A DNA stretch of 64,000 nucleotides from a virus. Taxonomy: Duplodnaviria; Caudoviricetes. The stretch lies in IMG/VR virus record IMGVR_UViG_3300032243_000867, positions 32,001 to 96,000 of that record; one strand, written 5' to 3'. Made by a program: the position numbers and the translations under genes. The stretch's first letter is position 1. Each line of letters begins with the position of its first letter. The notes under the pieces are model-generated. The model had not been told where the DNA came from. It ran no database searches and worked only from the letters and a program-made list of their open reading frames with translations. Positions 4,379 through 39,571 of the stretch are shown here, piece after piece.

Positions 4379-4941
4379 AGTCTTTTCCCCCATGTCGTGG
4401 CGTCGAGCCTGTCAGGGTTGGGGTTGTAGGGGTGTTGTTCAGAATTCGCTATTCCCGCAAGCTCTTCATGGTGCAGCGTGCGGTCCGGGCGGGGGTCGTT
4501 ACCGTAGTGAATCATTACGTTCCATCGGCAGGGTAGGCACTTCACGGTGCCCCTCAACACGAGGTGGGAGAACAGGTCGGGCGTCCCGCAAGCGGTCCCG
4601 TCCGTGTTCTTGCCGACGTAGAGGACGTGGGGGATGGAGCGGAGAATCCCCGTCAATCCCATCAGCGTGTAGTTCTGGGGCCAGCACAGGACGGCCACCT
4701 CTACGCCCTCCGGGCACTTCCAATGCGCGAAGTAGCTCTGATGTACCTCGACCTTGGGGTGCTCCACGGGACACGGTCCCTTGTCCACGGCGTGGACGAG
4801 CGTAGCCCCCATGTCGGCCATCGTGCGGGAGAGCTCGCCGCTACCGCATCCTAAGTCCGCGACCGCGCGCCCTTCGACCACAGTGCGGAGGTAGGCCAAC
4901 TGTTCCTCTGACAGCGTGTAGTAGGTGCCCGTCCTGCTCAT
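4375..4941 (-). CDS. class I SAM-dependent methyltransferase
   Basis: VADLGCGSG motif I and HAVD motif II; start re-called at ATG 4941, coupled to the upstream minigene stop. Confidence 0.75.
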   Translation of the reverse strand: MSRTGTYYTLSEEQLAYLRTVVEGRAVADLGCGSGELSRTMADMGATLVHAVDKGPCPVEHPKVEVHQSYFAHWKCPEGVEVAVLCWPQNYTLMGLTGILRSIPHVLYVGKNTDGTACGTPDLFSHLVLRGTVKCLPCRWNVMIHYGNDPRPDRTLHHEELAGIANSEQHPYNPNPDRLDATTWGKRL

Positions 4942-5111
4942 CGGGGTTCCTTTCCCCGCAGCGCGCACCGAAACCCCAGGTTGAGGATCCGGTACGCAGG
5001 CACGCTCGTGTGGCGAGACGCCGCGCTCACCCACGACGGTACGTTGAGGCCCCAACTGCCGCCGCGGATGACGAGGTAACGGGTGTCGGTGGGCTTTGTG
5101 GGGGGTTTCAC
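4938..5111 (-). CDS. FGE/CLec variable-region-like minigene, copy A (57 aa)
   Basis: Hand translation VKPPTKPTDTRYLVIRGGSWGLNVPSWVSAASRHTSVPAYRILNLGFRCALRGKEPR; GTGA/ATGA overlaps at both ends. Confidence 0.75.
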   Translation of the reverse strand: MKPPTKPTDTRYLVIRGGSWGLNVPSWVSAASRHTSVPAYRILNLGFRCALRGKEPR

Positions 5112-5251
5112 GGCTCACCCCGGAACAGGATGTAGAAGAGGAGGCACAGCGCGGCCACGGTGAACGGGGATACCTGTAGATCGAACCGCTCTGAGAGCGT
5201 GAGGTCTTCCCAGCTTGGGATGCGGCAGTCGTCGTCGGGTTCGCGGGGCAT
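5108..5251 (-). CDS. small membrane protein (47 aa)
   Basis: MPREPDDDCRIPSWEDLTLSERFDLQVSPFTVAALCLLFYILFRGEP; GGGCGTAA motif 9 nt upstream; hydrophobic C-terminus. Confidence 0.55.
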   Translation of the reverse strand: MPREPDDDCRIPSWEDLTLSERFDLQVSPFTVAALCLLFYILFRGEP

Positions 5252-5285
5252 ATCCCGCTTTTACGCCCGTTCAATCCGTTAGCTA

Positions 5286-5369
5286 GGCTACGCACAAGCC
5301 CGCGACGTGAACGCGGCCCTCAACCTACGAGGTTGGGGAATGAGACGGACCCGTAAGTATCGGAGTTCA
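5286..5369 (+). mobile_element. remnant of the TnpB element (3' end of tnpB fused to the right end)
   Basis: Encodes GYAQARDVNAALNLRGWG versus GYAQDRDVNAALNLRGWG in the tnpB at 58873-60111; terminal 26 nt match the element end at 25/26. Confidence 0.85.
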
Positions 5370-5387
5370 CGCCCGTAGGGTACGAGC

Positions 5388-7817
5388 ATGACCAAAGTTC
5401 CCGACCATCAAATGCGCGCGGCGATGAACACCGTCGCGGCGTCGAACCCTTCCGTCAACTGGGCGTCCCTCGCCGTGGGAATCGCGCGGGTGAAGGAGGT
5501 TCAGTACGAGGAGATGAAGGTCACCTTGGTGGTCCTCACGGGGGAGTCTCAGGTGGCCGAGTACACCGGGGTGGACATCACCCTTCCCGGTGGGGGCAAA
5601 CGTCATTTTTTTGGTGCTATTCCCGAGCGCGGGGACATCTGTTACGTCACATGGGGGGCGCGAGAAAGCGCCGGAACGGCCAGTGCGAAGGCCCCGGTGA
5701 TTCTAGGGTGGGTCCCAGCCGCTCAGTGGATGGGGCACGAGTGGATTCCGTTTCAGGCGATGGAACGGGGGGAGAACATGGACACCCCCAGCGACCGTGC
5801 GGTGACCTCGGGCACGTTCGAGCGGGTGCGCTTCAAGATGCGCCACCTCGCCCCCGGCAACGTGTTCGCAAGTTCCTCCCAGGGCAGTGACTTGGTGATG
5901 GACGAAGGGGTGTCGATCTCGAACCGCCGCGGAAACGAGATTCGTCTCCGCGACAGCGATCAAGCACTGGTCACACGGTCGCTTCAGCAGTATCACGCGA
6001 TGGCGGGGGCTCGAATCTACTCCGGGATGGTCCACCGCGAGTCCCGGCTACTACCCAGCACGCTATTCAGCGACGGGGTGTACTGGGATAACAGCCCTCA
6101 GACGGTCGGAGACAACGCCCCGCGTAGCGCCCTCGGTTCTTCCCCCTTCCCCGAGAGGTACTTGACGCCGGGGGAGATTTTCGAGCGAAACGTCGGGGCG
6201 TCGTCTTCGGGCTTCGCTCTAGCTAACGGGACTTTCCCCGCACGCCTGGACCCCTTCGTATTCCTCCAGTGGGGGGGATTGATCGACGCGAACGGGTACC
6301 GAATCGACAACTCCTTTCCCAGCGGGGGTGGAGGGGTATCCAACACCACCTACGGCGGGAAACCTCTGTATCGGATCGGACTGCGCCCGAACGGAGGGGT
6401 GGACAATGCCGTCGCGCGGACGGATCAGCAGAACACGACCCCGGTTGATTCCCTGACCGAGTACCGAGTTGAGGTAACGCACACCAGCAACGGGCTTCTT
6501 CCGGTCACGGAACAGACGGACGGTTTCGACGCGGAGAGACTCCCGGCCTCCGTACCCACGGCGGGTTCCCCCACGGGTCAGGGCCGTCTACCGTTCATCG
6601 AATGGGTCCTCGGGTCTGTCGTCGGCAACGATCCGTTCTCCCTCCAGGGTCGCCCTCTCTACGGGTTGCCTCTGAAGGCGCAGATACAAGACCCGTCGGG
6701 AAATGTGTCTCCCGCGATGATCTCCGCCCTTACGTCTCCTCTTGGTGACCACGCGGCGACTTTGTTCCGCCTCGTATCCCCAGTTCCAGGCCCGAACGGA
6801 TCGACCCAGAGCAGTTTCACCAGCTTCACGAAGGACGGAAGGTTCCGCGCGTACCTAGCTGGCGGGCCTGTCAGCGCGGAAGTAGCCACGGAACGGGACC
6901 TATCCCTCACCGTGGGCGGGGTTCTCAACCTCAAGCTAGCGGGCGGAATCAACATCAACGGCGCGACGGGTCCGGGGAACGTCGGTCTGAACCTCGGAAG
7001 CGCCACGGGTGCAGTGGTGATCTCGGGCGGGGGAGCCCTCAACGCGAACGTCGCAGCCCAGGCCACAGCCCCGAACTCCCTCGGGAACGTCACCCCTTCG
7101 GTGGTGGTGGACGGCGCTCAGGGCGTCCAAGTGCAGTCCGACGCGCAGGTGAACATCAGCGCCTCGCAGTCGGTGAACATCGCCAACACGGGCAACATCA
7201 ACTTTAGAGCCCAGAACCAAATCAGCATCCGTTCCGGCGGAAACGTCAGCCTGTCCGCGCAAACGCACAGCGTCGTCATCACCGGCAACGAAACCGTCAA
7301 CTACAGCGGCCCCGAAGGCGCGAACCCCGCGAACGGCCCCACCCGCTCTGTGCGCCTCGCTAGCACGCCGGGAACGGGGAACCTCGGCGGCACCGTGGAC
7401 CGCTACCGGATGGTGTACGGCGACCGCGAGGAAGTGTTCGAGACAAGGGGCAACCACAGCACCAGCATCATCGGGCAGGGGAACCTCACCTACGAGACCA
7501 ACCTCGGTAGGTTCCGGGCGCGGGCGGGCACCAACCAAATAGACGTTGACAGCACCAGCGGCATCACGGCCACGGTCGCGGTCGGGAACGTATCCGTCAC
7601 CGCCAGCGTCGGGGGCGTTTCTATCACCGGGCAGACGGATGCCACCCTCCGGGCCATCACGGGGACGGCCACGGTAGCGGGCGCGACGGGCGTGCGGCTC
7701 GTCAGTCCCGGCCCCGCCAATGGAGGAATCTTGGCTGGGAGCGACCTCGACCCGCTCACGGGTATCCCCTACGCGACGTTCATCGCGCCCCGTAACCAGA
7801 CCCTCGCCCCGGCCTAG
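5388..7817 (+). CDS. baseplate hub/spike protein (gp5/VgrG-like)
   Basis: N-terminal OB-like region (IPERGDICYV) and long C-terminal Gly/Ser/Thr/Val/Asn beta-helix-like repeats. Confidence 0.65.
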   Translation: MTKVPDHQMRAAMNTVAASNPSVNWASLAVGIARVKEVQYEEMKVTLVVLTGESQVAEYTGVDITLPGGGKRHFFGAIPERGDICYVTWGARESAGTASAKAPVILGWVPAAQWMGHEWIPFQAMERGENMDTPSDRAVTSGTFERVRFKMRHLAPGNVFASSSQGSDLVMDEGVSISNRRGNEIRLRDSDQALVTRSLQQYHAMAGARIYSGMVHRESRLLPSTLFSDGVYWDNSPQTVGDNAPRSALGSSPFPERYLTPGEIFERNVGASSSGFALANGTFPARLDPFVFLQWGGLIDANGYRIDNSFPSGGGGVSNTTYGGKPLYRIGLRPNGGVDNAVARTDQQNTTPVDSLTEYRVEVTHTSNGLLPVTEQTDGFDAERLPASVPTAGSPTGQGRLPFIEWVLGSVVGNDPFSLQGRPLYGLPLKAQIQDPSGNVSPAMISALTSPLGDHAATLFRLVSPVPGPNGSTQSSFTSFTKDGRFRAYLAGGPVSAEVATERDLSLTVGGVLNLKLAGGININGATGPGNVGLNLGSATGAVVISGGGALNANVAAQATAPNSLGNVTPSVVVDGAQGVQVQSDAQVNISASQSVNIANTGNINFRAQNQISIRSGGNVSLSAQTHSVVITGNETVNYSGPEGANPANGPTRSVRLASTPGTGNLGGTVDRYRMVYGDREEVFETRGNHSTSIIGQGNLTYETNLGRFRARAGTNQIDVDSTSGITATVAVGNVSVTASVGGVSITGQTDATLRAITGTATVAGATGVRLVSPGPANGGILAGSDLDPLTGIPYATFIAPRNQTLAPA

Positions 7818-7821
7818 CCCG

Positions 7822-7851
7822 CCTATAGGGTTGCACCTGTAGAGGTGCCCG
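7822..7851 (+). promoter_or_regulatory. putative late promoter CCTATA-N12-TAGAGGTGCCCG
   Basis: Same layout recurs at 30812-30841; both copies lie 1-2 nt before an ATG. Confidence 0.5.
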
Positions 7852-7852
7852 T

Positions 7853-8650
7853 ATGTCCATCGTGCTGAACGGCGAGAAGATCGCCACCCCCGGCCTTGAA
7901 ACCTTCTCGTGGCTCGACGACCACAACGTCCCCAAGACCACGGACGTGAACCCGCGCACGCAGTGGCTTCGGGCCATCGTGATGCACACGGTATCGGGCA
8001 AGGTCGGGGGCTTGAAGCCCGGTCTGTCCGCGCCGTCGTCGCGCGCGGAGTCCTACGCCAAGTACCAAGCGAACACCAGCCGCGACGTGTCGTGGGACTA
8101 CACCATCGACACGGACGGAACCATCATCGCTAGCAACGACCCGCTCAAGTTCTACACCTGGCAAGCCACGTCGGTGAACCCCTTCACCCTCGGGATCGAA
8201 CTCGTGCAGGAGGACAACGGCGACCTGTACGAAGGCCAAATGGACGTGGCCGTGCGGTTCCTCGACCTACTCACCCGCGAGCTCGCGGACCGGGGTCACC
8301 CGATCCAGCGACAGGTGCCGATGACGATGGACGGGAAGCCCGTGAAGGGGATCGTGAAGCGCATCGAGGACTCGTCCCAAGCCAAGAACTTCTCTGGTGT
8401 GGTGGGCCATCGCAATCAGACCACGAACCGTGGACCCGGCGATCCCGGCGATCATATCTTCAACGCGCTGTTGAAGGCGGGGTACAAGGGATTCAACCTC
8501 GACGCGAACGACGACGTAAGGTTCTGGAAGGACATTCAGACCCGTCTGAACCTGTCCCCGGCGGACGGCATTCCCGGTCGCGGCACGCAGCAAGCCCTCA
8601 TCGCGGCGGGCTACAAACACGGGCTGATGGTCACCCGCCCCGGTGACTGA
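7853..8650 (+). CDS. N-acetylmuramoyl-L-alanine amidase (endolysin) with C-terminal peptidoglycan-binding domain
   Basis: IVMHT, WDYTIDTDG, LGIEL, VVGH...DPG amidase_2 motifs; IQTRLNL..ADGIPGRGT PG-binding motif. Confidence 0.85.
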   Translation: MSIVLNGEKIATPGLETFSWLDDHNVPKTTDVNPRTQWLRAIVMHTVSGKVGGLKPGLSAPSSRAESYAKYQANTSRDVSWDYTIDTDGTIIASNDPLKFYTWQATSVNPFTLGIELVQEDNGDLYEGQMDVAVRFLDLLTRELADRGHPIQRQVPMTMDGKPVKGIVKRIEDSSQAKNFSGVVGHRNQTTNRGPGDPGDHIFNALLKAGYKGFNLDANDDVRFWKDIQTRLNLSPADGIPGRGTQQALIAAGYKHGLMVTRPGD

Positions 8651-8656
8651 TCCCGG

Positions 8657-9235
8657 TCAGTCGTCTTCGCGGCTGTAATCGGTCGGCGTCCCTCGGGCGG
8701 CGAGCGCACGGTAGAACACCTCGCGGCAGTCGAGGGCGTCTTGGAGGGCCGTGTGGGCACCCTCCCGCGACAGGCCCAGATGATCTCGAAGGCTGTCCAG
8801 CGAGAGCTTGAGGTTCCCGTCCAGCCCCCACGCCATGTACGCCACCGTGGTGGTGTCGATGGTGCGGTGTGAAATCCGGGCGTCCACCCCCGCGCGCTTC
8901 AGTTCCGCCGCGATGAACCCCGTGTCGAACTTCGGGTTGTGACCGATGATCGTTCCACCCTTCAGGTGCTCGACCAGTTCCCCGGCGATGGCGCTGAAGG
9001 GTGGGGCGTTCGCCCACGCTTCGGGCGTGTACCCGTTGACCTTCAACGCGACGGGTTCAGCCGTCTCGATGTGCTGCGGGGCGACCTTCCGTGACCACAT
9101 GAGAGTGATCTTCCCCGGCCCCGTGTACGGGTACTCGACCTCTTCGCGCACGATGGCGACCTCGATCACCTCGTTGACGGTGGGGTCGAGCCCGGTGGTC
9201 TCGGTGTCGAGGTAGATGCGAACGATGGTTTCCAT
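8657..9235 (-). CDS. DEDDh 3'-5' exonuclease (Pol III epsilon-like)
   Basis: YLDTETTG, GHNPKFD and HTALQDA Exo I-III motifs. Confidence 0.9.
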   Translation of the reverse strand: METIVRIYLDTETTGLDPTVNEVIEVAIVREEVEYPYTGPGKITLMWSRKVAPQHIETAEPVALKVNGYTPEAWANAPPFSAIAGELVEHLKGGTIIGHNPKFDTGFIAAELKRAGVDARISHRTIDTTTVAYMAWGLDGNLKLSLDSLRDHLGLSREGAHTALQDALDCREVFYRALAARGTPTDYSREDD

Positions 9236-9276
9236 AGGGTAGGTTTCCTATCGGCCCGCAAGGGTGAGGAGTCTAC

Positions 9277-9633
9277 ATGACCGCCAGCGCCCGTAGGGTT
9301 GTTGCACGCTACCTATCCGCCGCCCCCCTTCGCCTAGACCCAGCGGTGACGAGAACGGTGGACCTAGCCTTGGTGAAGGCGGGGATGGACGGGAACAGCC
9401 CGTTCCGAAGCACCTCCCTCGCGGTCAACCGCATCGGAGAGGTTCTGTCGTCTCACTCCCTGGGTCTCTCGGGGCTGAACGCGGCATCGGTGCGGGGAAG
9501 CGAAGGAGAGGCTTCCGCGAGGTTGGTGTCCCGGAACGCCGAGGGGATGGCGATGCTGACCACCTCGAAGCTGACCCTTCAGTGGGTCACGGCGGACGAC
9601 GGAACCGTGAAGGTCGTTGCCTACCTGACCTAG
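9277..9633 (+). CDS. hypothetical putative virion protein
   Basis: GAGGAG RBS; N-terminal ARRVVARYL motif shared with other proteins in the window. Confidence 0.6.
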   Translation: MTASARRVVARYLSAAPLRLDPAVTRTVDLALVKAGMDGNSPFRSTSLAVNRIGEVLSSHSLGLSGLNAASVRGSEGEASARLVSRNAEGMAMLTTSKLTLQWVTADDGTVKVVAYLT

Positions 9634-9742
9634 ACGACCTCGACGACCCGGAAAGTTTTGAAGATGTCCGGGCCGTGCGGGTGGACCGGAAGGTAGTCGT
9701 CTACCGTCCCGCCGCGGAGCTTTACCAAGTTTTTGGCGTGCG

Positions 9743-9928
9743 TCAGCGGAGTATCGTTCGCGGTTCCCTTCCCCGAAGGGCGCACCGAAACCCGGCATCG
9801 TCGAGACGGCACGCAGGCACGTCCGCGCCGCGAGACGCGGCGCGCACCCTCGACGGTACGTTGCTGTACCAACAGCCGCCGCGTTGGACGCGAAGGCGGG
9901 TGTCAGTGGGCTTGGTGGTGGGGTTCAT
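9743..9928 (-). CDS. FGE/CLec variable-region-like minigene, copy B (61 aa)
   Basis: MNPTTKPTDTRLRVQRGGCWYSNVPSRVRAASRGADVPACRLDDAGFRCALRGREPRTILR; ATG overlaps the stop of copy C. Confidence 0.75.
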   Translation of the reverse strand: MNPTTKPTDTRLRVQRGGCWYSNVPSRVRAASRGADVPACRLDDAGFRCALRGREPRTILR

Positions 9929-10083
9929 ACTCGGGGGCTCCTTCCCGGCAGGTGGGTTCGGAACCCGTGGTCGCGGAAAAAAATTGTGGGCTTGTACTCT
10001 TGAAACGACGCGGCGGGTAGGAAGGCCGCGAGGTGGTACCAAGACCCGCCACGAATCACGCGAAGCCGGTTGTCGATCCTCAC
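9925..10083 (-). CDS. FGE/CLec variable-region-like minigene, copy C (52 aa)
   Basis: VRIDNRLRVIRGGSWYHLAAFLPAASFQEYKPTIFFRDHGFRTHLPGRSPRV; GTGA-coupled. Confidence 0.7.
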   Translation of the reverse strand: MRIDNRLRVIRGGSWYHLAAFLPAASFQEYKPTIFFRDHGFRTHLPGRSPRV

Positions 10084-10253
10084 AGCGTCACCTCGTAGGG
10101 GTGGACCAGGACGTAATCGTAGTCGTCGATTCGACCGCGCGAGTCCACGCGGAGGGTTTGGACGTAGGCGTTCGCCCCCTCCTCCGTGGCGAACACGCCA
10201 CGGATGAAACGGTCCCCGTGGACCCAACCCGCCGTTACGATCCAGACGGTCAT
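10080..10253 (-). CDS. small hypothetical protein (57 aa)
   Basis: MTVWIVTAGWVHGDRFIRGVFATEEGANAY...; GGGCGTAA 8 nt upstream; coupled to copy C. Confidence 0.6.
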   Translation of the reverse strand: MTVWIVTAGWVHGDRFIRGVFATEEGANAYVQTLRVDSRGRIDDYDYVLVHPYEVTL

Positions 10254-10261
10254 GCGGGATG

Positions 10262-11110: not shown

Positions 11111-11256
11111 TAGAGTCTCCGTTGGTTAGTCCCGGGGGTCAAGACCCTTGGGGTTACAGGGGGGAGATCTTAACGTAGGGTGGTCCGGGGGTCTACTAAA
11201 TTCGTACGACCGCTCGGGCGGCCAACGCCGTTAGGCGTTCTATTACGCGCGAAGGG

Positions 11257-19903: not shown

Positions 19904-20014
19904 CGGCCCCCCCCGTTTGCTTTTCGATAGCCCCCGCCCCTTACCCCCGGACGGGGGCTAACGTCCGGGAACCCCCGAAACCCTAGCGCCTTGATGACGA
20001 GTGAGGAGTCAACC

Positions 20015-22999
20015 ATGCTCGACGGGAACCATTTCCCCAATTTGCTCAGTGAGTTCGTGTACACGCGCACCTACGCGCGATGGCTGGAGGACGCCAAGCG
20101 CCGCGAAACGTGGCCCGAGACCGTCCACCGTTACGTCAGCTACATTTTCAAGGACAAGCCCGCGCCCCACGGGTTGCGCGAGAGCACTGAGAAGCTCATC
20201 CTCAACTTCGACGTGCTCGGTTCGATGCGGGCGCTGTGGTGCGCGGGTCCCGCGATGGACCGCGATAACGTGTGCGGCTACAACTGCTCGTTCTTGCCCG
20301 TGGACAACCTCCGGGCGTTCAGCGAGGCTTTGGCGATTCTCATGGCAGGGACGGGCGTGGGGTTCAGCGTCGAGCGCACGTTCACCGACAACCTCCCGGT
20401 GATCGCGCACCCCACGGGCGACGCCATCGACTACATCATCCAAGACTCGACCGAAGGCTGGGCGGACGCCGTGTACTTCGGGATGGTGCAATACCACCTC
20501 GGGCACCGTGTGAACTGGAACTACTCCCTCATCCGCGCGAAGGGCGAAAGGCTCCACACCAAGGGCGGTCGGGCTAGCGGGCCGGAACCCCTCAAGCGCG
20601 TGCTGGACTTCGCCGGGGAGACCATCGCCGGGGCGGCGGGCCGGAAGCTCAAGCCCATCGAAGCGCATGACATCATGTGCATGATCGCGGAGATCGTGAT
20701 GGTGGGTGGGTTCCGTCGGGCGAGCCTCATCTCGTTCAGCGACGTAGAAGACACAGAGATGCGCGACGCCAAGGACTGGTCGAAGGGCACGTTCCCTTCC
20801 ATCCGTTACATGGCGAACAACAGCGCCGTGTACACGGACCGCCCCACGGAGGAGGTGTTCTGGCGCGAGTGGAACTCCCTCGCCAAGTCGGGCTCGGGCG
20901 AGCGGGGTTTCTACATCGTCAGCCCCAGCAACGTCGCCAAGCGCGGCGGAGAGTTTCGCAGTAACCCCTGCGTCACCGGGGACACCCGCGTGATGACCGA
21001 CCGTGGCATGGTCCAAATCCGCGACCTCGTCGGCAAGCCCACCAAGCTCCTGCTCGACCAGCGGTTTGGCACGGGCGGCTTCGGACACACCACGGAGGCT
21101 GGGGCGTTCAAGACGGGCACCAAGGAGGTGTACCGCCTCACCACGGAGGAGGGGTACACCCTGCGCCTCACGGCTGACCACCGGGTGATGACTTCTCGCG
21201 GGTGGGTCGAGGCCCGTCACCTCACCCCCGCCGACCGCATTCACGTCACCAACAATGGCGGCGGTTTCGGCACCAAGGGGGACGAGAATCTCGGGATGCT
21301 GGCCGGATGGCTCGCCGGGGACGGCTGCGTCCTCGACAACGGGGTCCCCCGCTTCTACTTCTACGGCGAGAAGCGTGAGCTCACGGCTCGCATGGCCGTG
21401 GCAGCGCAAGCCGTCACCGGAGGACCGCTCCCGGTGGCTCACACCTACGCCCCGGCTGATCGGGACACCTTCCAGAGCGCGGACCTTCGCGAGTACCTCG
21501 GGGGGATGACCAAGGGGCGCGTGCCAGAGTTCGTCTGGCAGGGCTCCAAAGACTGCCAGCGGAGCTACCTCTCGGCGCTGTTCAGCGCCGATGGTTCCGT
21601 GCAGGGCACTCGTGAGACGGGTGCCTCGGTGCGTCTATCGTCCGTGGAGGCCGACCTTCTCCGTGACGTGCAGATGCTCCTGCTGAACTTCGGCGTGGCG
21701 TCGAAGCTCTACCTTGACCGTCGCGAGGCGGGGACCCGTCTACTGCCCGATGGCAATGGTGGTCTGTCCCCGTACCCCTGCCAAGCCGACCATGAGCTCA
21801 TGGTGAGCAAGGCTAGCCTCGTCGTGTTCCACCGCAACGTGGGTTTCATGCTGGCGTCCAAGGACGCCAAGCTGAAGTCCGTCGTGGACGGTTTCGTTCG
21901 CGGCCCCTACGCTGAGAAGTTTGTCGCTCGGGTGGCTTCGGTCGAGTCCTGCGGCACCGAAGACGTGTACGACCTCACGGAGCCGACGACTCACTCGTTC
22001 GTCGCGAACGGGATGGTGGTCCACAACTGCGGCGAGATTTTGCTCCGCTTCAAGCGCGCGACCGACCCGTGGACGGGCGCGGGCGGCGGTGGGCAGTTCT
22101 GCAACCTCACGGCGGCGGTGATGCGCCCGCACGACACCCTTGAAACGATGGCCGAGAAGGTTCACGCGGCGACGTGGCTGGGGGTGATTCAGTCCTCTTA
22201 CACGCACTTCCCCTACCTTCGCCCCGCGTGGAAGGAGCTTTGCGACGAGGACCGCCTCGTGGGCGTGGACATCACGGGCCAGTGCGACAACCCGGCGCTC
22301 TCGGGCGACGAGGAAGCGATGACGTACCTGAACGCCCTCGCACGTTCGACGGCGATCATCGCGGCGGCAACCCTCAAGGTTAACCGCCCTGCGGCGATCA
22401 CCTGCGGCAAGCCCAGCGGGAACTCGTCGCAGTTCGTGGACTGCGCCAGCGGGTTTCACACCCGGTACGCGAAGTATTACCACCGTCACGTTCGCATCTC
22501 GTCCAAGGACCCGCTGTACCACCTCGTCCGCGACCAAGGCGTGCCGCTGTTCAAGGAGAACGGGCAAGAACACCTCGACGACGACAAGGTGGACGTGTGG
22601 GTGGCACGGTTCCCGGTGAAGTCTCCCGACGGGGCGAAGCTCCGCGACCACGAGCGCGCCCTCCAGCAGTTGGAGCGGTACCGACAGATCATGCGGACGT
22701 GGTGCGGGACGAAGGGCCACAACCAGAGCGCAACCGTCTACGTCCGCGACGAAGAATGGCAGGAGGTGGGCGAGTGGCTCTGGAAGCACTTCGACGAGGT
22801 GACCGGGCTGTCGTTCCTGAACTACGACGGCGGGGCGTACCGTCTCGCCCCCTACGTCGAGATCACCGAAGAGGAGTATCTCAAGTCCTCGGCGGAGATG
22901 CCGCGCGTGCGGTTCGACCTCCTCCACCGTTACGAGACGGGCGACATGGGCGACGGTGCCCGTGAAGCCGCGTGCGTGGGTGGGGCGTGCGAGGTTTGA
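20015..22999 (+). CDS. nrdJ: class II (B12-dependent) ribonucleotide reductase with intein
   Basis: YNCS, GTGVGFS, NP|CGE split by intein, TCGKPSGN, C-terminal ACVGGACEV; GAGGAG RBS before ATG 20015. Confidence 0.92.
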   Translation: MLDGNHFPNLLSEFVYTRTYARWLEDAKRRETWPETVHRYVSYIFKDKPAPHGLRESTEKLILNFDVLGSMRALWCAGPAMDRDNVCGYNCSFLPVDNLRAFSEALAILMAGTGVGFSVERTFTDNLPVIAHPTGDAIDYIIQDSTEGWADAVYFGMVQYHLGHRVNWNYSLIRAKGERLHTKGGRASGPEPLKRVLDFAGETIAGAAGRKLKPIEAHDIMCMIAEIVMVGGFRRASLISFSDVEDTEMRDAKDWSKGTFPSIRYMANNSAVYTDRPTEEVFWREWNSLAKSGSGERGFYIVSPSNVAKRGGEFRSNPCVTGDTRVMTDRGMVQIRDLVGKPTKLLLDQRFGTGGFGHTTEAGAFKTGTKEVYRLTTEEGYTLRLTADHRVMTSRGWVEARHLTPADRIHVTNNGGGFGTKGDENLGMLAGWLAGDGCVLDNGVPRFYFYGEKRELTARMAVAAQAVTGGPLPVAHTYAPADRDTFQSADLREYLGGMTKGRVPEFVWQGSKDCQRSYLSALFSADGSVQGTRETGASVRLSSVEADLLRDVQMLLLNFGVASKLYLDRREAGTRLLPDGNGGLSPYPCQADHELMVSKASLVVFHRNVGFMLASKDAKLKSVVDGFVRGPYAEKFVARVASVESCGTEDVYDLTEPTTHSFVANGMVVHNCGEILLRFKRATDPWTGAGGGGQFCNLTAAVMRPHDTLETMAEKVHAATWLGVIQSSYTHFPYLRPAWKELCDEDRLVGVDITGQCDNPALSGDEEAMTYLNALARSTAIIAAATLKVNRPAAITCGKPSGNSSQFVDCASGFHTRYAKYYHRHVRISSKDPLYHLVRDQGVPLFKENGQEHLDDDKVDVWVARFPVKSPDGAKLRDHERALQQLERYRQIMRTWCGTKGHNQSATVYVRDEEWQEVGEWLWKHFDEVTGLSFLNYDGGAYRLAPYVEITEEEYLKSSAEMPRVRFDLLHRYETGDMGDGAREAACVGGACEV
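20969..22027 (+). mobile_element. intein with LAGLIDADG homing endonuclease (353 aa) in NrdJ
   Basis: Begins CVTGDT, ends VVHN before Cys; LAGWLAGDG and LSALFSADG blocks. Confidence 0.92.
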
Positions 23000-25395: not shown

Positions 25396-25797
25396 ATGAG
25401 CAACGACGAACTTCGGGCGCTGGTTCAACGGGTCAAGGCGGGTCTGAAGATCACCAAGGTGGTCGCGACCCGTTCGGTAAAGGGCCGGGGCGGAGACACC
25501 TTCGTAGGTTTCTCCGCCGCGTGGAACAGCGTTCAGGAGGACGGCGGGCAGGGAGTCATTACCGCTGGGGAGGACTCCGACGAGGGGAACAACCTCAACG
25601 GTATGACCATGCAAGAGGCCCTCGTCGCCAGCATCCTTATTGCCCGCGAAGCCGACACCGCCGCCTACCGCAACGCGGCGGCGGGGGGAAACATCTCCCA
25701 GTCTCAAGCGGACGGGGCCATCACGGCAATCAAGTCGAACTACAGCAAGCTTCTGGTGAGCGCCCTCGGAGCGGGGAACAATGGTTCTGACAAGTGA
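25396..25797 (+). CDS. hypothetical protein
   Basis: Co-directional ORF in the replication operon. Confidence 0.65.
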   Translation: MSNDELRALVQRVKAGLKITKVVATRSVKGRGGDTFVGFSAAWNSVQEDGGQGVITAGEDSDEGNNLNGMTMQEALVASILIAREADTAAYRNAAAGGNISQSQADGAITAIKSNYSKLLVSALGAGNNGSDK

Positions 25798-26494
25798 CCC
25801 GATGCTCGACCCCTCGCACATTGAGGGGTTGTACAACTCGCTCGGAGCGATGCAGGTTGATCTGGACGCAGACCCTCTGGAGCTCGGCCCGAAGCGTCTG
25901 AACGGGAAGATCGCTGAGTGCCGGGGGATGCTCTCCCGGTGCGAGAAGATTTTTCTCGACGTGTCGCAGTCCCTTCACCGCTACAAGCGCCTTCACCGGG
26001 CGGCGAGCGCGGACTTCAAGCTCCGTATGCGGGATATGTTCACCAACGACCCGGAAGTTCGTATGGGTCGCAATGTGACGGACCGTGAAGCTATCGCGGC
26101 GAACAAGATGCGCCCGGAAGCTGAAGAAATCGACCGTTTGACGGCGAACGTCGAAGACCTCGAAGCGGTTCTTACCGTGGTGCGAACGAAGCGCGCGGAC
26201 CTGAAGGATATTCAGGGACGCCTCAAGGATCAGCTCAAGGTGTGCCAAGAGGAAATCTCCCTCGGCGGGCGCTGGGGGAAGTCTCTGATCGCCACCGGGC
26301 GTATCCTCGACCCGGCGGGCGATAGCGTGACCGACCTCATCGAGAACGTGTTGGTCCGCCCCCCGGCGAAGGCACTTGTTGGTGATGAGGACATTCCCTT
26401 GGAGCCCGTTCCTGACGAGGTTCCCTCTGTCCGTCACCCGGATGAGGGTATCTTCACCGACGAAGGGATCGACGAAATTCTCTCTTCGCTCTGA
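25781..26494 (+). CDS. coiled-coil protein, possibly a UvsY-like recombination mediator
   Basis: Long heptad helices, acidic tail, position next to SSB; the function is inference. Confidence 0.45.
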   Translation: MVLTSDPMLDPSHIEGLYNSLGAMQVDLDADPLELGPKRLNGKIAECRGMLSRCEKIFLDVSQSLHRYKRLHRAASADFKLRMRDMFTNDPEVRMGRNVTDREAIAANKMRPEAEEIDRLTANVEDLEAVLTVVRTKRADLKDIQGRLKDQLKVCQEEISLGGRWGKSLIATGRILDPAGDSVTDLIENVLVRPPAKALVGDEDIPLEPVPDEVPSVRHPDEGIFTDEGIDEILSSL

Positions 26495-26587
26495 AAAATT
26501 TCCCGCCTCCCGTTGGGGGCGGGCGTAATAACCCCCGCGAACACTGTCCCAATCAATCGACCCGTTCGCAACAAAGGAAAGACCAAG

Positions 26588-31110: not shown

Positions 31111-31112
31111 TC

Positions 31113-32602: not shown

Positions 32603-32630
32603 ACCCCGCTTCGCGGGCGTAACGTCCACC

Positions 32631-33623: not shown

Positions 33624-33635
33624 AGTGCCGATACC

Positions 33636-34610: not shown

Positions 34611-34879
34611 GCTCAGACCTAAAGACTCGCCTCGACGCGGCGGTCAAGAGGCGTGACGACCTCACCGCGAAGCGGCAGAGGTTGCTGGGCCGTCTCGAAG
34701 AGGCGGAACGAACCGCCGAGGAACTTCGGGCGAAGTGCCGCGCGAAGGGGATTGACCCGGACAACCTTGAGAGCGTAATCGCCAAACTGGAAACCGCTCT
34801 GGAGAAGTCCCTCCTCGACTTAGAAGCCAAGCTAACTGACGCCGAGAAATCCCTCGAACCCTATCTCAACAGGAAGTAA
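34607..34879 (+). CDS. small coiled-coil protein
   Basis: 90 aa of heptad repeats; GGGCGTAA 10 nt upstream. Confidence 0.65.
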   Translation: MSSDLKTRLDAAVKRRDDLTAKRQRLLGRLEEAERTAEELRAKCRAKGIDPDNLESVIAKLETALEKSLLDLEAKLTDAEKSLEPYLNRK

Positions 34880-34882
34880 CCC

Positions 34883-36001
34883 GTGAACATCAACAGCACT
34901 GACCTCGAAATCGCCCTGAAGGTTGTCCGCGTCACCGTGGGAACCTCCAGCGACATCGCTTCCCACTACGTCTTCCGTTCGCGCGGGGGAAAGCTGGAGG
35001 TTCTCTCTTACGACGGGCGCACGTTCTCTTCGTGCTTCGTCCCCAACACGACGACGACCGAGGAGCTCTCTTTCACGGTGGAGGCGCGGCGTATTCACGT
35101 TCTCCTCGACAACGTCGGCGCGAACCAGCCCCTCGAACTCTCCTACTCGGAGGGCGGGGAGGTCACCGTCAAGGCTTCGCGCGGCAAGGTGACGTTCTCT
35201 TCTCTCGACCCGTCGCTGTTCCCGTACTGGGATGACGTTCTGACGGGTGCGGCGTCTACCGCGACGGTGGGGGCGGACCGCCTTCATTCCGCGCTCTCGA
35301 ACGCTCGGCAGTTCATCTACGACCAGGAGTCCAAGAACCCGGCTCTCTGCGTCGCGGAGTTCCGCAACGGGGTGCTTCACTCCACCGACCAGATGGCCGT
35401 CTCCCTCGTGAAGATGCCGGGGATGGAGGCGTGCAAGCTCCGCGTGTTCGTGAAGGATCTTCCCAACGTGCTCTCCTTCCTCGTTACGGCGAAGGGGGAA
35501 GATGTCGAGATTCTGGAGTCCGACCGGGCGAGCTTCCTCCGCCGCCCGTCGGGCGCGGTGTTCGGTGAGGCGGTGTTCGCGCACCGGTTTCCCGACATCA
35601 ACGTGGACTGGGCCCTGGAGGATGACCAGTCATGGGACATCTTCCAAGAGGAGCTCCTCGCGGGCATCGGGTTCCTTCAGTCGGGCGCGAAGCTCGACGA
35701 GCCCCGCGTCCGTTTCCAGCGCGACGAGAATCGGGTGAATCTCTCGATGACCTCGGTCAGCGGGAAGGCCCTTCCCCTCACCATCCCCCTCGTCGAGTTC
35801 AAGCAGAAGGAGGGGGGCGTAACGGAGATGCCGGTGTTCGCCGTCACCGATGCCTACGTCTCCAAGATTCTCAACGGCAACGGCAACACCAAGGTCCGCC
35901 TCGGCGTTTCCAAGAAGGGCGCTGGCGGCTGGGTGCGCGTTCGGGACGACCGCGGCCCCGATACCTACCTCACCACGGTCGCATGGTTGAAGAACGCCTG
36001 A
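34883..36001 (+). CDS. dnaN: DNA polymerase III beta sliding clamp-like protein
   Basis: 372 aa; LEVLSYDG, STDQM and FPD repeats in a three-domain clamp pattern. Confidence 0.7.
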   Translation: MNINSTDLEIALKVVRVTVGTSSDIASHYVFRSRGGKLEVLSYDGRTFSSCFVPNTTTTEELSFTVEARRIHVLLDNVGANQPLELSYSEGGEVTVKASRGKVTFSSLDPSLFPYWDDVLTGAASTATVGADRLHSALSNARQFIYDQESKNPALCVAEFRNGVLHSTDQMAVSLVKMPGMEACKLRVFVKDLPNVLSFLVTAKGEDVEILESDRASFLRRPSGAVFGEAVFAHRFPDINVDWALEDDQSWDIFQEELLAGIGFLQSGAKLDEPRVRFQRDENRVNLSMTSVSGKALPLTIPLVEFKQKEGGVTEMPVFAVTDAYVSKILNGNGNTKVRLGVSKKGAGGWVRVRDDRGPDTYLTTVAWLKNA

Positions 36002-36618
36002 AGTCCCTCAACAACTCGCTGCGTATCGCGCAGGGTCGCCGTGAAGAAGTACGGCTCTCCCTGAGCGATGCGCGCGGGTCTGTTACCCGCCTCGAAAACG
36101 AATCCCAACTCCTGGATCACGTCGCGGTCTTACTTCACACCCTCATCGACGGGGAAATCACCGAGGGCGTCAAGGCCATCGAGTCCCTTCAATCCGAAGG
36201 GGTGCGTGCGGTGTTCAACGACCAAGACATCACGGTGCGGGCCGACGTAGAGGTATCTCGCGGAAAGGTGAACGTCTCCCTCGTCACCTCCCAGCGTAAG
36301 GAGAACGGCGACCTGATCGAAGGGCTTGCCCTCGACGGGTTCGGCGGTGCGGTCAGCACCGTGCAGAGTATTCTTCTGCGCCTCGCGATCATTTTCCGGC
36401 GCGGGTTGCGACCCGTGTTGTTTCTAGACGAGACACTCCCAGCCTTCGACGACCGCTACGTCCACGCGATGGCCGCGTTCCTCAAGACCCTTTGCAAGCG
36501 CATGGGTGTGGACATCCTGCTGGTGACGCACAACCCGGCGTTGGTAGATGCCGGGGACCGCGCGTACCGTATTCGGCGGGACAAGGGGTTCTGCACGTTC
36601 CACAGGATCACCCAATGA
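35983..36618 (+). CDS. sbcC: SbcC/Rad50 C-terminal half
   Basis: Coiled coil, then FGGAV signature, LFLDE Walker B and LVTH H-loop; no Walker A. Confidence 0.8.
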   Translation: MVEERLKSLNNSLRIAQGRREEVRLSLSDARGSVTRLENESQLLDHVAVLLHTLIDGEITEGVKAIESLQSEGVRAVFNDQDITVRADVEVSRGKVNVSLVTSQRKENGDLIEGLALDGFGGAVSTVQSILLRLAIIFRRGLRPVLFLDETLPAFDDRYVHAMAAFLKTLCKRMGVDILLVTHNPALVDAGDRAYRIRRDKGFCTFHRITQ

Positions 36619-37145
36619 AGACCGAAGGGCAGGTACGGCACAAGCTCCAGCAGGTGACCTACCGCCACATCCAGCGGGCCATTCGCACGGCCCTCTCCCG
36701 TCGCCCCGAGAATTGCGAGAACAACCGCCGCGTGAAGCTCCCGGTGTTGGGTTCCGAAGTTCGGTTCTGCACCGTGATCGAGGACGTGGACGGTGACTTC
36801 GTGCCGTGCGACGAACGGCACGGGGGTTTGGACCGTGCCGCCAAGTGCCCGCAGTTCGCGTGCGCTTCCACCAAGGAGTCCGTGAAGGCCGACTTCTCGG
36901 AATTCTTGAGTACGTCCGACGTGGCGACCATCGCCGCCCAGTACCCGGACATCGCCGCGCTTCTGTGGGCCCTCGATGACACCGCCCCGGTGCCCATCGA
37001 GGAGCCCCTAGCGCCGGAACCACCCCCTCCCCCCTACAACATCATCTACTTCACGGGGGGAGGGGCGATTTCCGTCCCCGCTGTGGGGCCGTTCACGGGT
37101 CACCGCGCCGTCACCTACAATGTCACGTTCGGAGCCGGGTCGTGA
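36615..37145 (+). CDS. hypothetical Cys-containing protein
   Basis: ATGA-coupled ORF. Confidence 0.55.
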   Translation: MKTEGQVRHKLQQVTYRHIQRAIRTALSRRPENCENNRRVKLPVLGSEVRFCTVIEDVDGDFVPCDERHGGLDRAAKCPQFACASTKESVKADFSEFLSTSDVATIAAQYPDIAALLWALDDTAPVPIEEPLAPEPPPPPYNIIYFTGGGAISVPAVGPFTGHRAVTYNVTFGAGS

Positions 37146-37663
37146 GTCTACTCCACGTCGTGTCCGTCCCGGCCCCCGGCAAGGGTGCCCCATTGTTCGT
37201 GGAGTTGCCCGTCCACCCGGACACGGCCCCGTACCTCGTCACCAGCAACAAGGGGATGTTGTGGATCGACAACAGCTTCAGCGGGAGCTTTGTCCGTTCC
37301 GCTGTCCTCCGTGAGCGATGGGGGGACTCCGTGGGTCACGTCACCTACGAGGCCATTGTGCGGTGCATCGTCCAGCGGGGTCGAGAACTCTCGTGGGGCA
37401 ACCAGTTCCCGGCGACGGCGGTAGGACTTCGTGGTGCCCGTGAGTACCTGAGGTCCTACGACTTGGTGGACTGCGATCTGCTGACCGGGAAGGGCGTGGC
37501 CTTGGGTGAGGGCATGGGGTGCCTTTGGGTTCCCGAGGGCTGTGCCGTGCTCGTGCCCCGCGACCGTTCGTACCTCGGCATCGTCGGGACGCTGGGCGAC
37601 GGGGCACACACGGTCATGGTCCACAACCCTTCCCGTGGCATGGCCGTGCTGGGCGCGTGGTGA
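37142..37663 (+). CDS. hypothetical protein
   Basis: GTGA-coupled ORF. Confidence 0.55.
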   Translation: MSLLHVVSVPAPGKGAPLFVELPVHPDTAPYLVTSNKGMLWIDNSFSGSFVRSAVLRERWGDSVGHVTYEAIVRCIVQRGRELSWGNQFPATAVGLRGAREYLRSYDLVDCDLLTGKGVALGEGMGCLWVPEGCAVLVPRDRSYLGIVGTLGDGAHTVMVHNPSRGMAVLGAW

Positions 37664-37680
37664 CGGGCGTAACGTCCCCC

Positions 37681-38403
37681 GTGAACTCCCCCATCGGTGA
37701 GTGGCTGGAAGCCCATCTCACCACCCTCTCCCTCTCCGAAGACTGCGAAGGCTACCTGCTGGGGCGAGGCGCGAGCCCCGACACCATCGAGCGGTTGGGC
37801 ATCCGCGAGTGGGAGCCAGCATCTACCCCCGCTCCCAGCGAGCACTTCACGTCCCGCTACGGTCGGCACGGCGAGAAGCTGACCGAGATGGTCACGATCC
37901 CCCTGCGTGGCCCCACGGGCACGCTCACGGGGATCGAAGCCCGTTCGTGGCACGAGAAGCGGGTGACGGACTTCCGGGTACCCGAGGCCGAGTGGAACCC
38001 CGTCGCTCTCGACCTACCGAGGGCGGCGGAAGCCATGTGGGCGGGCGGGTCCGTGTGGGTGGTCGAGGGCGTGTACGACCTGTGCGCCTTGGATTGGTGC
38101 ATCCCCAAGACCGACGCGGTGATCTCGACCCTGCGAGCGGGTCTGGGCAAAGACGTGCTGGAGTTTTTGGCCCGGTTCTGCACCAACACCGTGTACATGG
38201 TGTACGACAACGATGACACCGGGCGGCGGGCCACCCACGGCTGGAAAGACCCCGCCACGGGGAAGTACCGCCCCGGCGCTCTCGACCTCCTCAAGCGGGC
38301 TGGCGTGAGGGCGGTGGACTTCCGCTACCGGGGGAAAGACCCCGGTGAGGTGTGGCGAGCGGGCGGGCTGTCCAAGTTGCGGGAGACGTTCGGGCGGGCG
38401 TAA
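37681..38403 (+). CDS. dnaG: DNA primase, TOPRIM core (no zinc-binding domain)
   Basis: VVEGVYD, YDNDDTG and KDPGE; GTG 8 nt after GGGCGTAA. Confidence 0.8.
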   Translation: MNSPIGEWLEAHLTTLSLSEDCEGYLLGRGASPDTIERLGIREWEPASTPAPSEHFTSRYGRHGEKLTEMVTIPLRGPTGTLTGIEARSWHEKRVTDFRVPEAEWNPVALDLPRAAEAMWAGGSVWVVEGVYDLCALDWCIPKTDAVISTLRAGLGKDVLEFLARFCTNTVYMVYDNDDTGRRATHGWKDPATGKYRPGALDLLKRAGVRAVDFRYRGKDPGEVWRAGGLSKLRETFGRA

Positions 38404-38411
38404 CGTCCCGC

Positions 38412-38885
38412 ATGAGCCCCGAAGCTATCGTCATCGCCATCCTCGCCCTGTTCCCCCACATGAGCGGGAACAACCGCCGCTGCATCGAGACGCAGCAAGA
38501 CCGCATCGTCCAACAGCTTCGTGAGGTATCCCAGCCCTACGAGCCCGGTGCGCCCGTGCCCCCGGTGGAGCTCACCGCTGCCGTTGCCTTCGCGGAGACA
38601 CACCTTGGGTGCGACATCAACGAAGGGGGCAACTGGGGTGCGCCCATCGACCCGCAGCACCGTCACACCGCCGGGACGCATATGCACGCCGTCCGCGCCC
38701 TGTCCCGTGGCTACCAGCGGTGCGGGGATTGGGACGGGGCCATCCTTCGGTTCCGCACGGGGCTCTGCAACCCCCGGCGCAGCCCGTCGGAGCGGGTACG
38801 CGAGCAGGGCGCGCACTACCTCCGGGTGATTCACCGCATCGTGGAGCGGGTTCGTCGGCACGCCGAAGAAGTACACGGCGAGTGA
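38412..38885 (+). CDS. putative lytic transglycosylase-like protein
   Basis: Hydrophobic N-terminus and LTAAVAFAET resembling the SLT catalytic Glu helix. Confidence 0.45.
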   Translation: MSPEAIVIAILALFPHMSGNNRRCIETQQDRIVQQLREVSQPYEPGAPVPPVELTAAVAFAETHLGCDINEGGNWGAPIDPQHRHTAGTHMHAVRALSRGYQRCGDWDGAILRFRTGLCNPRRSPSERVREQGAHYLRVIHRIVERVRRHAEEVHGE

Positions 38886-39052
38886 CCCGGAACAACCTTC
38901 CGCGTATCCTCCGGGGCGGCAGCGGGTTCAGCCTAGAGACGGTGCCCGTTCGCGCGGCGACTCGCTACACGGTCGGGCCTTTGGTTTTGTACGACAGCGT
39001 CGGGTTTCGGTGTGGGTTGCGGGGCAGACAACCCGTGGGGGCTAAACCGTGA
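38882..39052 (+). CDS. FGE/CLec variable-region-like minigene, copy D (56 aa)
   Basis: VTRNNLPRILRGGSGFSLETVPVRAATRYTVGPLVLYDSVGFRCGLRGRQPVGAKP. Confidence 0.7.
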   Translation: MTRNNLPRILRGGSGFSLETVPVRAATRYTVGPLVLYDSVGFRCGLRGRQPVGAKP

Positions 39053-39210
39053 GCTTCGACAAGACTATGGTCGTCATCCGAGGCGGTAGCTGGGGGGATT
39101 CCCCGGAAATCTTCGCCCGTGCGACCTTCGATTCCGCGTACTCGCCCGTGACCCGCTACGAGTGCTTCGGGTTCCGCACCCCCCTTCCAGCCCGTCAGCC
39201 ACGGGCGTAA
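39049..39210 (+). CDS. FGE/CLec variable-region-like minigene, copy E (53 aa)
   Basis: VSFDKTMVVIRGGSWGDSPEIFARATFDSAYSPVTRYECFGFRTPLPARQPRA. Confidence 0.7.
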   Translation: MSFDKTMVVIRGGSWGDSPEIFARATFDSAYSPVTRYECFGFRTPLPARQPRA

Positions 39211-39218
39211 GTACCCGT

Positions 39219-39401
39219 ATGAACCCCCCCACCACCAAACCCACCTCCGACACCCTTCACCGCGTCTACCGCGGCGGCAGTTGGTGCAGCGGACCGTCGT
39301 TGGTACGCGCGGCTCGCAGCGCGGTCGTGCCTGCGTTCCGGTACAGCATCATCGGCTTCCGTTGCGCGCTGCGGGGATGTGAGAGGAAGGTGAAGCCGTG
39401 A
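39219..39401 (+). CDS. FGE/CLec variable-region-like minigene, copy F (60 aa)
   Basis: MNPPTTKPTSDTLHRVYRGGSWCSGPSLVRAARSAVVPAFRYSIIGFRCALRGCERKVKP; ATG 8 nt after GGGCGTAA. Confidence 0.75.
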   Translation: MNPPTTKPTSDTLHRVYRGGSWCSGPSLVRAARSAVVPAFRYSIIGFRCALRGCERKVKP

Positions 39402-39571
39402 GTGAGTCCAAGACCGACACCCGTTACCTCGTCTTCCGCGGCGGCGGTAGCTGGTACAGCTGTGGGCCGTCGAGGGTGCGCGCGGCCATTCGCAACGCGG
39501 ACGAGCCTGCGTACCGTGACGACAACCTGGGGTTTCGGTGCGCGCTGCGGGGAAGGGAACCACGGGCGTAA
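39398..39571 (+). CDS. FGE/CLec variable-region-like minigene, copy G (57 aa)
   Basis: VSESKTDTRYLVFRGGGSWYSCGPSRVRAAIRNADEPAYRDDNLGFRCALRGREPRA. Confidence 0.75.
   Translation: MSESKTDTRYLVFRGGGSWYSCGPSRVRAAIRNADEPAYRDDNLGFRCALRGREPRA

Follow-up and report, generated by a model that had tools for sequence, protein, structure and literature searches.

A phage family of lectin minigenes with variable regions matching the template repeat of a bacterial diversity-generating retroelement

The stretch of DNA analyzed here (hereafter the window; 64,000 nucleotides, GC ~64%) corresponds to bases 32001-96000 of the 265,895-bp IMG/VR virus record IMGVR_UViG_3300032243_000867 (lake phage G000), and positions are given in window coordinates unless "genome" is stated. 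It carries seven small genes, designated minigenes A to G and each encoding 52-61 amino acids, out of ~25 minigenes identified in the phage genome by a six-frame motif scan and a profile search. The minigenes encode only the C-terminal ~50 residues (RGGSW...GFR) of an FGE-sulfatase-type C-type-lectin (CLec) fold, the segment that forms the variable region in targets of diversity-generating retroelements (DGRs). One minigene subfamily (GFRC), including copies A, B, F, and G, varies almost only at the adenines of the template repeat (TR) of a DGR found in a Myxococcota bacterium.

Minigenes and the truncated lectin scaffold

The minigene products share the pattern leader-RVxRGGSW-x4-PSWVRAASR-x4-PAxR-x4-GFR-tail and fall into two subfamilies, namely the GFRC type ending GFRCALRGREPR (A, B, D, F, and G) and the GFRT type ending GFRTxLPxRxPR (C and E). 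Copies A, B, F, and G were located at the positions assigned to them in a preliminary description of this DNA, and C, D, and E adjoin them. Minigene A (4938-5111, minus strand, 57 aa) contains a TR-homologous tract at ~4961-5078; its GTG start overlaps the stop of a small upstream open reading frame (ORF) as GTGA, and the ATG of a methyltransferase-like gene (4378-4941) overlaps the TGA of minigene A. The small ORF (5107-5262, minus strand, MPREPDDDCRIPSWEDLTLSERFDLQVSPFTVAALCLLFYILFRGEP) has a hydrophobic C-terminal stretch. Minigene B (9743-9928, minus strand, 61 aa), with near-duplicates at genome 252239-252559 and 262880-263407, starts with an ATG 3 nt before the end of C (ATGA overlap), and the GTG start of minigene C (9925-10083, minus strand, 52 aa), which is devoid of the adenine signature described below, overlaps the TGA of its upstream ORF. 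On the plus strand, minigene D (38882-39052, 56 aa, a degenerate GFRC type) has a GTG start overlapping the TGA of the ORF at 38352-38885, and is followed by minigene E (39049-39210, 53 aa; GTGA overlap with D), minigene F (39219-39401, 60 aa, with the alternative tail GCERKVKP), and minigene G (39398-39571, 57 aa, P0001; GTGA overlap with F), the TR-homologous tract of which spans ~39425-39545. Such GTGA or ATGA overlaps with the stop of the upstream gene occur in most minigenes, and the layout looks like that of an operon with translational coupling. The repeated unit includes the start codon, the leader (TKPTDTR), and the tail (LRGREPR plus the ribosome-binding site of the next gene); both leader and tail lie outside the TR, and adenines are kept there. 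More than 50 distinct variants were collected in total, consisting of 33 in four phages and 25 further proteins from metagenomes.

The rest of the lectin fold is encoded by a separate gene. While minigene G aligns with positions 207-254 of the 255-position Pfam FGE-sulfatase profile PF03781, the single scaffold gene of the phage (genome 263933-264763, 277 aa, P0027) covers positions 12-193 and ends right after GNVWEW (GNVWEWTSTVHK-stop), lacking the segment encoded by the minigenes, so that the two parts of the PF03781 domain are in separate ORFs and not in one polypeptide. The scaffold stop overlaps the ATG of the first minigene in a tandem run (ATGA). An alternative genetic code was considered for this gene organization and dropped, because the minigenes terminate in both TGA and TAA and no slippery site is present at the scaffold stop. 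The same layout of scaffold plus minigenes was found in three related IMG/VR contigs (G001, G002, and G003). In relative G003 (25489-26577), a minigene also lies in frame upstream of the scaffold, and gene callers give 347-354-aa proteins (P0070 and P0071) with an N-terminal variable piece, which may be a natural permuted fusion or just read-through.

A tblastn search with the scaffold returned only distant (32%) Microcystis-phage genes. Scaffold homologs in ~45 database clusters (43-94% identity) were of matching lengths with full coverage, and all 10 of the clusters that were read ended right after GNVWEW; since homologs down to 43% identity agree in length and end point, the truncation is considered to be old and maintained. 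In a distant relative (ENA contig L089, 392,378 bp; region 10-21 kb), the scaffold is 66% identical to that of G000 and is followed within 10 kb by more than 30 RGGSW...GFR minigenes, which are highly divergent and for the most part have no Pfam hit on record.

In the predicted complex of scaffold residues 100-277 with minigene G, the interface score ipSAE was 0.66, compared with 0.00 for the best control; the mark applied to this score was reached by 58/80 solved complexes and by 2/110 mismatched pairs, counts that are only rough because our own alignments were used. The predicted confidence (pLDDT) of the scaffold rose from 49-50 with unrelated partners to 78-79 with minigene G, residues 9-52 of which are engaged in more than 200 confident contacts. 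The prediction thus supports binding of the minigene product to the scaffold, and we propose that minigene products complete the truncated scaffold in trans, whereby one scaffold and many tips would give a mixed repertoire of binding proteins.

Adenine-linked variation and its template in a Myxococcota genome

The preliminary description had proposed that copies A, B, F, and G differ by a DGR-like signature of adenine mutagenesis, in which codons change at positions 1 and 2 and mostly keep C at position 3 (NNC). This pattern was borne out, modestly on the four copies and far more strongly on a larger set of 33 GFRC-type copies from the four phages G000-G003. In A, B, F, and G alone, 13, 13, and 11 of the 29 gap-free core codon columns vary at positions 1, 2, and 3, respectively, and the third base is C in 35/44 codons over the 11 columns having three or more different position-1-2 dinucleotides; synonymous framework changes and indels are also present among them, as had been stated. 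When a hypervariable column was defined by H ≥ 1.2 bits in the larger set, the hypervariable nucleotide columns numbered 12, 11, and 2 at codon positions 1, 2, and 3, respectively. Eight NNC codon columns hold C in 29/30 to 33/33 copies, and the remaining variable codons change at one base only (NGT, NGG, NCG, and GNG). Among the distinct codons of the NNC columns, 91/103 end in C, and 3/103 encode K, E, Q, M, or W. The codon-usage null suggested in the preliminary description was also run: with the amino acid controlled for, 24 of the 27 distinct codons in four-fold boxes were C-ending as against 11.1 expected from genome usage, and 0/200,000 simulations gave a value as high. Furthermore, none of the 54 conserved core columns (CGC GGC GGC to CTG CGG) is A, as compared with 7/20 in the leader and tail flanks. 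Copy pairs with 0/86 framework differences nevertheless differ at 12-15 of 26-28 hypervariable sites, and the adenine-site distance is saturated (~0.6) while the framework distance stays below 0.04.

The GFRT minigenes served as an internal control. In 23 GFRT copies, the hypervariable columns were spread over the three codon positions (26/20/28), and C-ending codons numbered 43/114 as against 46.1 expected (P=0.75). Given that these copies, of the same length, genome, and fold, are without the signature, the bias in third-position GC (GC3, 79% genome-wide; third-position C, C3, 44%) is not its cause. Four tandem GFRT-type minigenes at genome 4909-5641 (26 kb before the window) show 0-6 amino-acid changes relative to G001 and seem to behave as fixed genes, not as hypervariable ones; the GFRT ortholog pairs carry 1-6 amino-acid changes versus 0-2 synonymous changes per pair, too few differences for a test of purifying selection. 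Minigene D differs by ~2% in other lake metagenomes, similarly to its flanks.

An RT and a TR do not accompany the variable repeats in the phage genome. No reverse transcriptase (RT) was found in G000 in searches with PF00078, with a bona fide DGR RT as the query, or with a profile built from 34 DGR RTs, nor was Avd (PF05635), and a nucleotide hidden Markov model search of G000 for the TR returned coding copies only, with no non-coding TR-like copy; relatives G001-G003 likewise gave no RT. Although CheckV estimated the completeness of the phage record at 59%, both of its ends are bridged by G003 (5036-5681 of G003 corresponding to genome 1043-419, and 6455-6673 to genome 265184-264966), and the whole record is tiled by G001 plus G003, which derive from a single sample and comprise 272 kb together. 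Because of these two observations, the record was treated as near-complete, as indicated by synteny with its relatives.

From the columns, a template was predicted with AAC at the NNC columns and AGT, GAA, ACG, and GAG at the single-site columns. A TR-shaped pattern was found at 60 metagenome loci, 34 of which have an adjacent RT, and the adenines of these metagenome TRs coincide with the hypervariable columns of the minigenes (Fisher p=4.7e-4 outside the part fixed by the pattern; p=2e-8 overall). In IMG/VR, the TR patterns retrieved one unrelated classical DGR, which served as a positive control, and two family-specific TR patterns gave no match. When each metagenome TR was scored against each phage copy, three TR loci matched three sister-phage minigenes at 94-97% of the non-adenine bases, with 15-17 of 27 adenines differing. 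One of these loci lies on a 46.7-kb contig (73.5% GC) where the TR and an RT are accompanied by a full-length FGE target and a Lon protease, the latter being 94% identical to a protein, labeled Myxococcales/Deltaproteobacteria at NCBI, from GCA_030652255.1 (G005). A search with the framework pattern over 401 genomes of the order of G005 then gave a match in G126. An earlier search of 185,579 species genomes with a 23-mer resembling the initiation-of-mutagenic-homing (IMH) site had yielded a single match within the antisense frame of an unrelated gene; G126 escaped this search, its TR and variable regions reading GCGCGCG instead of GCGCTGCG at this place.

In G126, contig C74 carries a DGR-type RT (266-847; PF00078 55 bits against a cut-off of 29.6, and 478 bits on the profile of 34 DGR RTs from TR-bearing loci), a TR located 3' of it (1163-1280, codons LRVNRGGSWNNNEPSWVRAASRNTNEPANRNNNIGFRCA), and an inverted variable region in a target gene (1946-1818). 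This TR (TR_G126) equals the predicted template apart from one base. A second target on C407 (L114 3288-5000, minus strand) encodes a 571-aa protein combining a caspase (Peptidase_C14) with an FGE lectin. Both G126 and G005 are members of a family comprising 31 genomes, in which many DGRs and both TR classes occur; the second TR class fits a second minigene class in the sister phages. Another family member, G154 (12.2 Mb), has at least eight RT genes above the Pfam cut-off, with several adjoining pairs of TR and variable region.

The test of template location foreseen in the preliminary description was thus positive, in that mismatches between minigenes and TR_G126 are concentrated at the TR adenines. 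In the following counts, adenine sites changed are given before other sites changed. Pooled over window copies A, B, F, and G, 60/102 adenines differ as compared with 33/364 other bases (odds ratio 14, p=1e-24), with individual values of 14/26 and 7/92 for A (p=9.5e-7), 17/26 and 6/92 for B (p=1.3e-9), 15/24 and 8/88 for F (p=1.9e-7), and 14/26 and 12/92 for G (p=4.2e-5); the degenerate copy D gave 18/26 and 26/92. The best copy, at genome 261509, showed 11/26 and 0/89, the copy G001_66005 showed 11/26 and 1/92, and three further phage copies showed 13-15/26 and 2/92, while the two variable regions of G126 itself gave 14/26 and 16/26 at adenines and 2/91 and 3/91 elsewhere. Some phage copies hence fit the bacterial template at least as well as the bacterium's own variable regions do. 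The bases found in the copies at template-adenine sites are A (260), T (151), G (130), and C (47), as in the mixed spectrum produced by DGR misincorporation; since A is replaced by all three other bases, adenosine deamination was rejected as the mutagen.

CTCCGCGTC marks the start of the homology with the TR and TGCGCGC its end, from which point on conserved adenines occur in the minigene flank. Between the phage and the bacterium, the variable-region frameworks are 96-100% identical in DNA, whereas the phage scaffold and the bacterial CLec bodies share only 36-40% protein identity, and the near-identity is thus confined to a tract of TR length. At the 3' end, the TR reads ...TGCGCGCGCGAGGCC and the bacterial variable regions read ...TGCGCGCGCGGGG, the latter form being shared by the G003-type minigenes, while the main phage class reads TGCGCGCTGCGGGG with one extra T. 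In addition, the locus of minigene C can be compared with G001:35143-35583, in which both flanks are identical and the ~95-nt interior is TR_G126-like in G001 but not in the window; this orthologous locus looks like an in-place replacement of one variable region.

The window belongs to a tailed phage and further contains genes for the terminase large subunit (54743-56587) and the portal (57174-58859) as well as a ribonucleotide reductase, a helicase, and a clamp loader. In the ribonucleotide reductase ORF (19991-22996, plus strand, 1002 aa), residues 327-429, between two reductase stretches, also match a PHROG family named 'terminase large subunit', and this second match may mark an inserted element such as an intein. 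No match to any of 50,697 phage records was obtained when 25 kb of the window served as a megablast query, and close relatives of the phage were placed in 12 freshwater studies by means of public runs and assembled contigs.

Origin of the minigene variable regions

Considering these findings, the best explanation is, in our judgment, probably that a host DGR writes the variable regions of the phage minigenes in trans and that the products complete the scaffold. During infection of a Myxococcota host, the TR RNA and RT of the host DGR would retrohome adenine-mutagenised cDNA into the variable regions of the phage minigenes, and the variants would then spread by tandem duplication, gain or loss of units, and gene conversion; active retrohoming into phage DNA is what we infer from the sequence relations given above. 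The idea in the preliminary description that the copies are remote DGR targets agrees with this, except that the RT and TR were located in the genome of a Myxococcota bacterium, a probable host, and not in the phage. Its other idea, that the copies are ectopically retrohomed cDNA cassettes that became genes, found no support; the insertion of ectopic cDNA as the origin of the copies was rejected, as the repeated unit is larger than the TR and keeps adenines in its leader and tail.

The TR match is the main link of the phage to the Myxococcota family of G126. A tRNA-Tyr fragment at 44821-44889 (plus strand), comprising the 5' two-thirds of the tRNA with the anticodon GTA and stopping before the T arm, was not called by ARAGORN or Rfam; its identity reaches 98% with the tRNA-Tyr of one genome of the G126 family and 88-94% with others of this family and order, values in the rest of the phylum sample being mostly 80-90%, and it gives weak support to a host of this family. 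The fragment could be an attachment-site remnant or a host-derived piece.

Several observations weigh against writing by the host. No writing event on phage DNA was seen, and the variability of each locus is unreadable from assembled contigs with cross-mapping paralogs. The link to the host consists of the TR match plus the tRNA-Tyr fragment, and the assembly of the scaffold with a minigene product in trans is seen as a model only. Minigenes D and E resemble frozen genes, as do the GFRT copies. Relative to TR_G126, window copies A, B, F, and G have 6-12 mismatches at non-adenine bases and are therefore older, decayed, or written from an unseen TR allele. The extra T in the main phage class amounts to a 1-nt insertion relative to the bacterial IMH-like GCGCGCGCGGGG. 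No convincing BPP-1-type hairpin was found 3' of the variable regions, 5-bp stems being no better than in shuffled sequences, with fold energies inside the shuffled range (z -0.75 to +1.26); a CGGGG-N7-CCCCG element occurs downstream of A and many other copies but does not follow F or G, and hairpin folding downstream of the bacterial variable regions is no stronger. Finally, recombination also shapes the family. The copy at genome 263408 is a mosaic of the 5' part of 263578 and the 3' part of 263235. In four lake metagenomes, the F/G region (39210-39585) is represented by many short contigs with joints skipping 170-181 bases, i.e. one minigene unit, and one strain is without D/E or F, from which it follows that the copy number of the array differs between strains. 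Mosaic copies together with unit-sized gain and loss thus indicate that recombination is active.

This last point bears on a rival explanation, in which the bacterial DGR diversifies bacterial targets only, and the phage acquires finished segments from host genes or other phages by homologous recombination or gene conversion and then duplicates them. Such pick-up would suit a phage without RT and TR, the mosaic copies and unit-sized changes, the identical variable regions at two G001 loci, and the failure to find a canonical hairpin. However, the tract homologous to the bacterial variable regions has exactly the boundaries of the TR, and the more than 50 variants include several that are closer to the TR than the bacterium's own variable regions are. 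The outermost variable codons, moreover, lie 9 nt and 16-19 nt from the ends of the tract, and outer arms of this size are very short for RecA-type exchange; a plasmid-supplied DGR can retarget a phage or heterologous gene provided with an IMH and a hairpin, for which 5' homology of at least 8 bp is enough (Guo et al., 2011, PMC3240598), and the short arms therefore suit DGR homing better. The TR_G126-like interior between identical flanks at the G001 counterpart of minigene C also counts in favor of writing. We accordingly regard the acquisition of finished segments as rather unlikely, and writing in trans by the bacterial DGR is favoured over it. Quite improbable, in our view, is that the repertoire is a fossil, i.e. 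that a DGR of an ancestral phage diversified and duplicated the variable regions before its RT and TR were lost, leaving the bacterial DGR as a relative of the lost element. The frozen behavior of the GFRT minigenes and of D and E, whose orthologs are 90-98% identical between phages and differ by ~2% in other lakes, would be expected in this case, as would the 6-12 non-adenine mismatches of the window copies. On the other hand, no RT is present in four related phages with 5-30% flank divergence, yet their GFRC repertoires differ, and among copies that show no framework difference (0/86) the adenine sites are saturated. An old loss is also hard to reconcile with the one copy that equals the bacterial TR at 89/89 non-adenine bases, and with two independent TR classes of one bacterial family that fit two phage classes.

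Ordinary divergence of paralogs in a GC-rich genome, by diversifying selection and a preference for C-ending codons with no templated mutagenesis, is scarcely tenable. It would draw on the GC3 of 79% and C3 of 44%, and on the variation of third positions in 11/29 columns when only four copies are compared. But the third bases are fixed per column (C in NNC; G in GNG, NCG, and NGG) against codon usage (24/27 vs 11.1), the core is without conserved adenines, the GFRT control is without the signature, and the variable sites fall on the adenines of a TR that was found independently. Writing by the host DGR in trans also leads to a wider idea, plausible but put forward tentatively: the virus may outsource hypermutation, having no RT of its own and offering an array of minigenes to the host DGR, so that variants written during infection each plug into the single truncated scaffold and give a combinatorial, host-written repertoire. 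One of the donor DGR's targets is a caspase-lectin protein, a type of protein for which a role in sensing invaders has been proposed, and for this reason the minigene products might act as decoys or competitors for that host sensor system rather than as receptor-binding tips.

Comparison with known retroelement and cassette systems

In the current view, a DGR is a self-contained cassette acting on genes of the genome that carries it. Three features of the present system depart from this view: the near-perfect relation between TR and variable region across genomes, from a bacterial DGR to a phage without one; the variable region as an independent gene, present ~25 times per genome, with more than 30 copies in a distant relative; and a lectin fold split at the boundary between scaffold and variable region, with the split conserved down to 43% identity. 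In a literature search of incomplete coverage, no account was found of gene arrays encoding variable regions only, of lectin scaffolds split in this way, or of phages naturally templated by the DGR of a host. One survey of jumbo phages recorded no lectin domain ('FGS') of the type that such reverse transcriptases diversify (PMC7824862), and Wu et al. list DGR targets down to 44 aa without further comment (PMC5758913). If the host element indeed writes phage DNA, this would be a natural case of a virus exploiting the targeted mutagenesis of its host and would allow uncultured phages to be linked to hosts by sequence; should the scaffold be completed by minigene products, the two would form a natural fragment-complementation system for swapping binding surfaces. 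Moreover, a caspase-lectin protein is itself diversified by the donor DGR, which makes the proposed part of such proteins in phage-host conflict directly testable.

The present system shares with the BPP-1 DGR (mtd variable region, TR, avd, and brt) the adenine-specific differences between TR and variable region, the location of the variable region at the C-terminal end of a phage CLec protein, and a GC-rich 3' end common to the template; the BPP-1 machinery can also act in trans on a phage target (PMC3240598). Unlike BPP-1, the phage described here is devoid of RT, TR, and Avd, the matching TR and RT being in a bacterial genome, and its variable region is a separate gene of 52-61 aa in ~25 copies with the scaffold encoded by another gene. 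The 7-10-bp hairpin with a GRNA loop known from BPP-1 was not found here.

Cellular clade-5 DGRs diversify CLec sensors of conflict systems, with caspase or NACHT modules, in multicellular bacteria and act on remote targets in trans (Dore et al., 2024, PMC10907252). The published trans action takes place within one genome, whereas here the matching variable regions are in a virus, as stand-alone minigenes. In its RT and TR, its several targets including a caspase (Peptidase_C14)-CLec protein, and the many RTs per genome of its family, the G126 system looks like these elements. As in those systems, remote variable regions match the TR at non-adenine sites.

TvpA and the non-adjacent DGR targets of Treponema denticola have FGE-type CLec folds in which RGGSW...GFR frames the variable residues, with several targets per template. 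The minigenes and scaffold are of the same FGE-sulfatase CLec subtype with the same framing and multiple targets per template, but the fold, which is a single polypeptide in TvpA, is split here at the loop between GNVWEW and RVxRGGSW. In layout only, a scaffold with alternative variable cassettes and gene-conversion mosaics resembles the silent cassettes of Neisseria pilE/pilS and Borrelia vlsE. In contrast to those cassettes, the minigenes possess their own start codons, ribosome-binding sites, and stop/start overlaps, on account of which they are probably all expressed rather than silent, and their diversity bears the signature of a reverse transcriptase.

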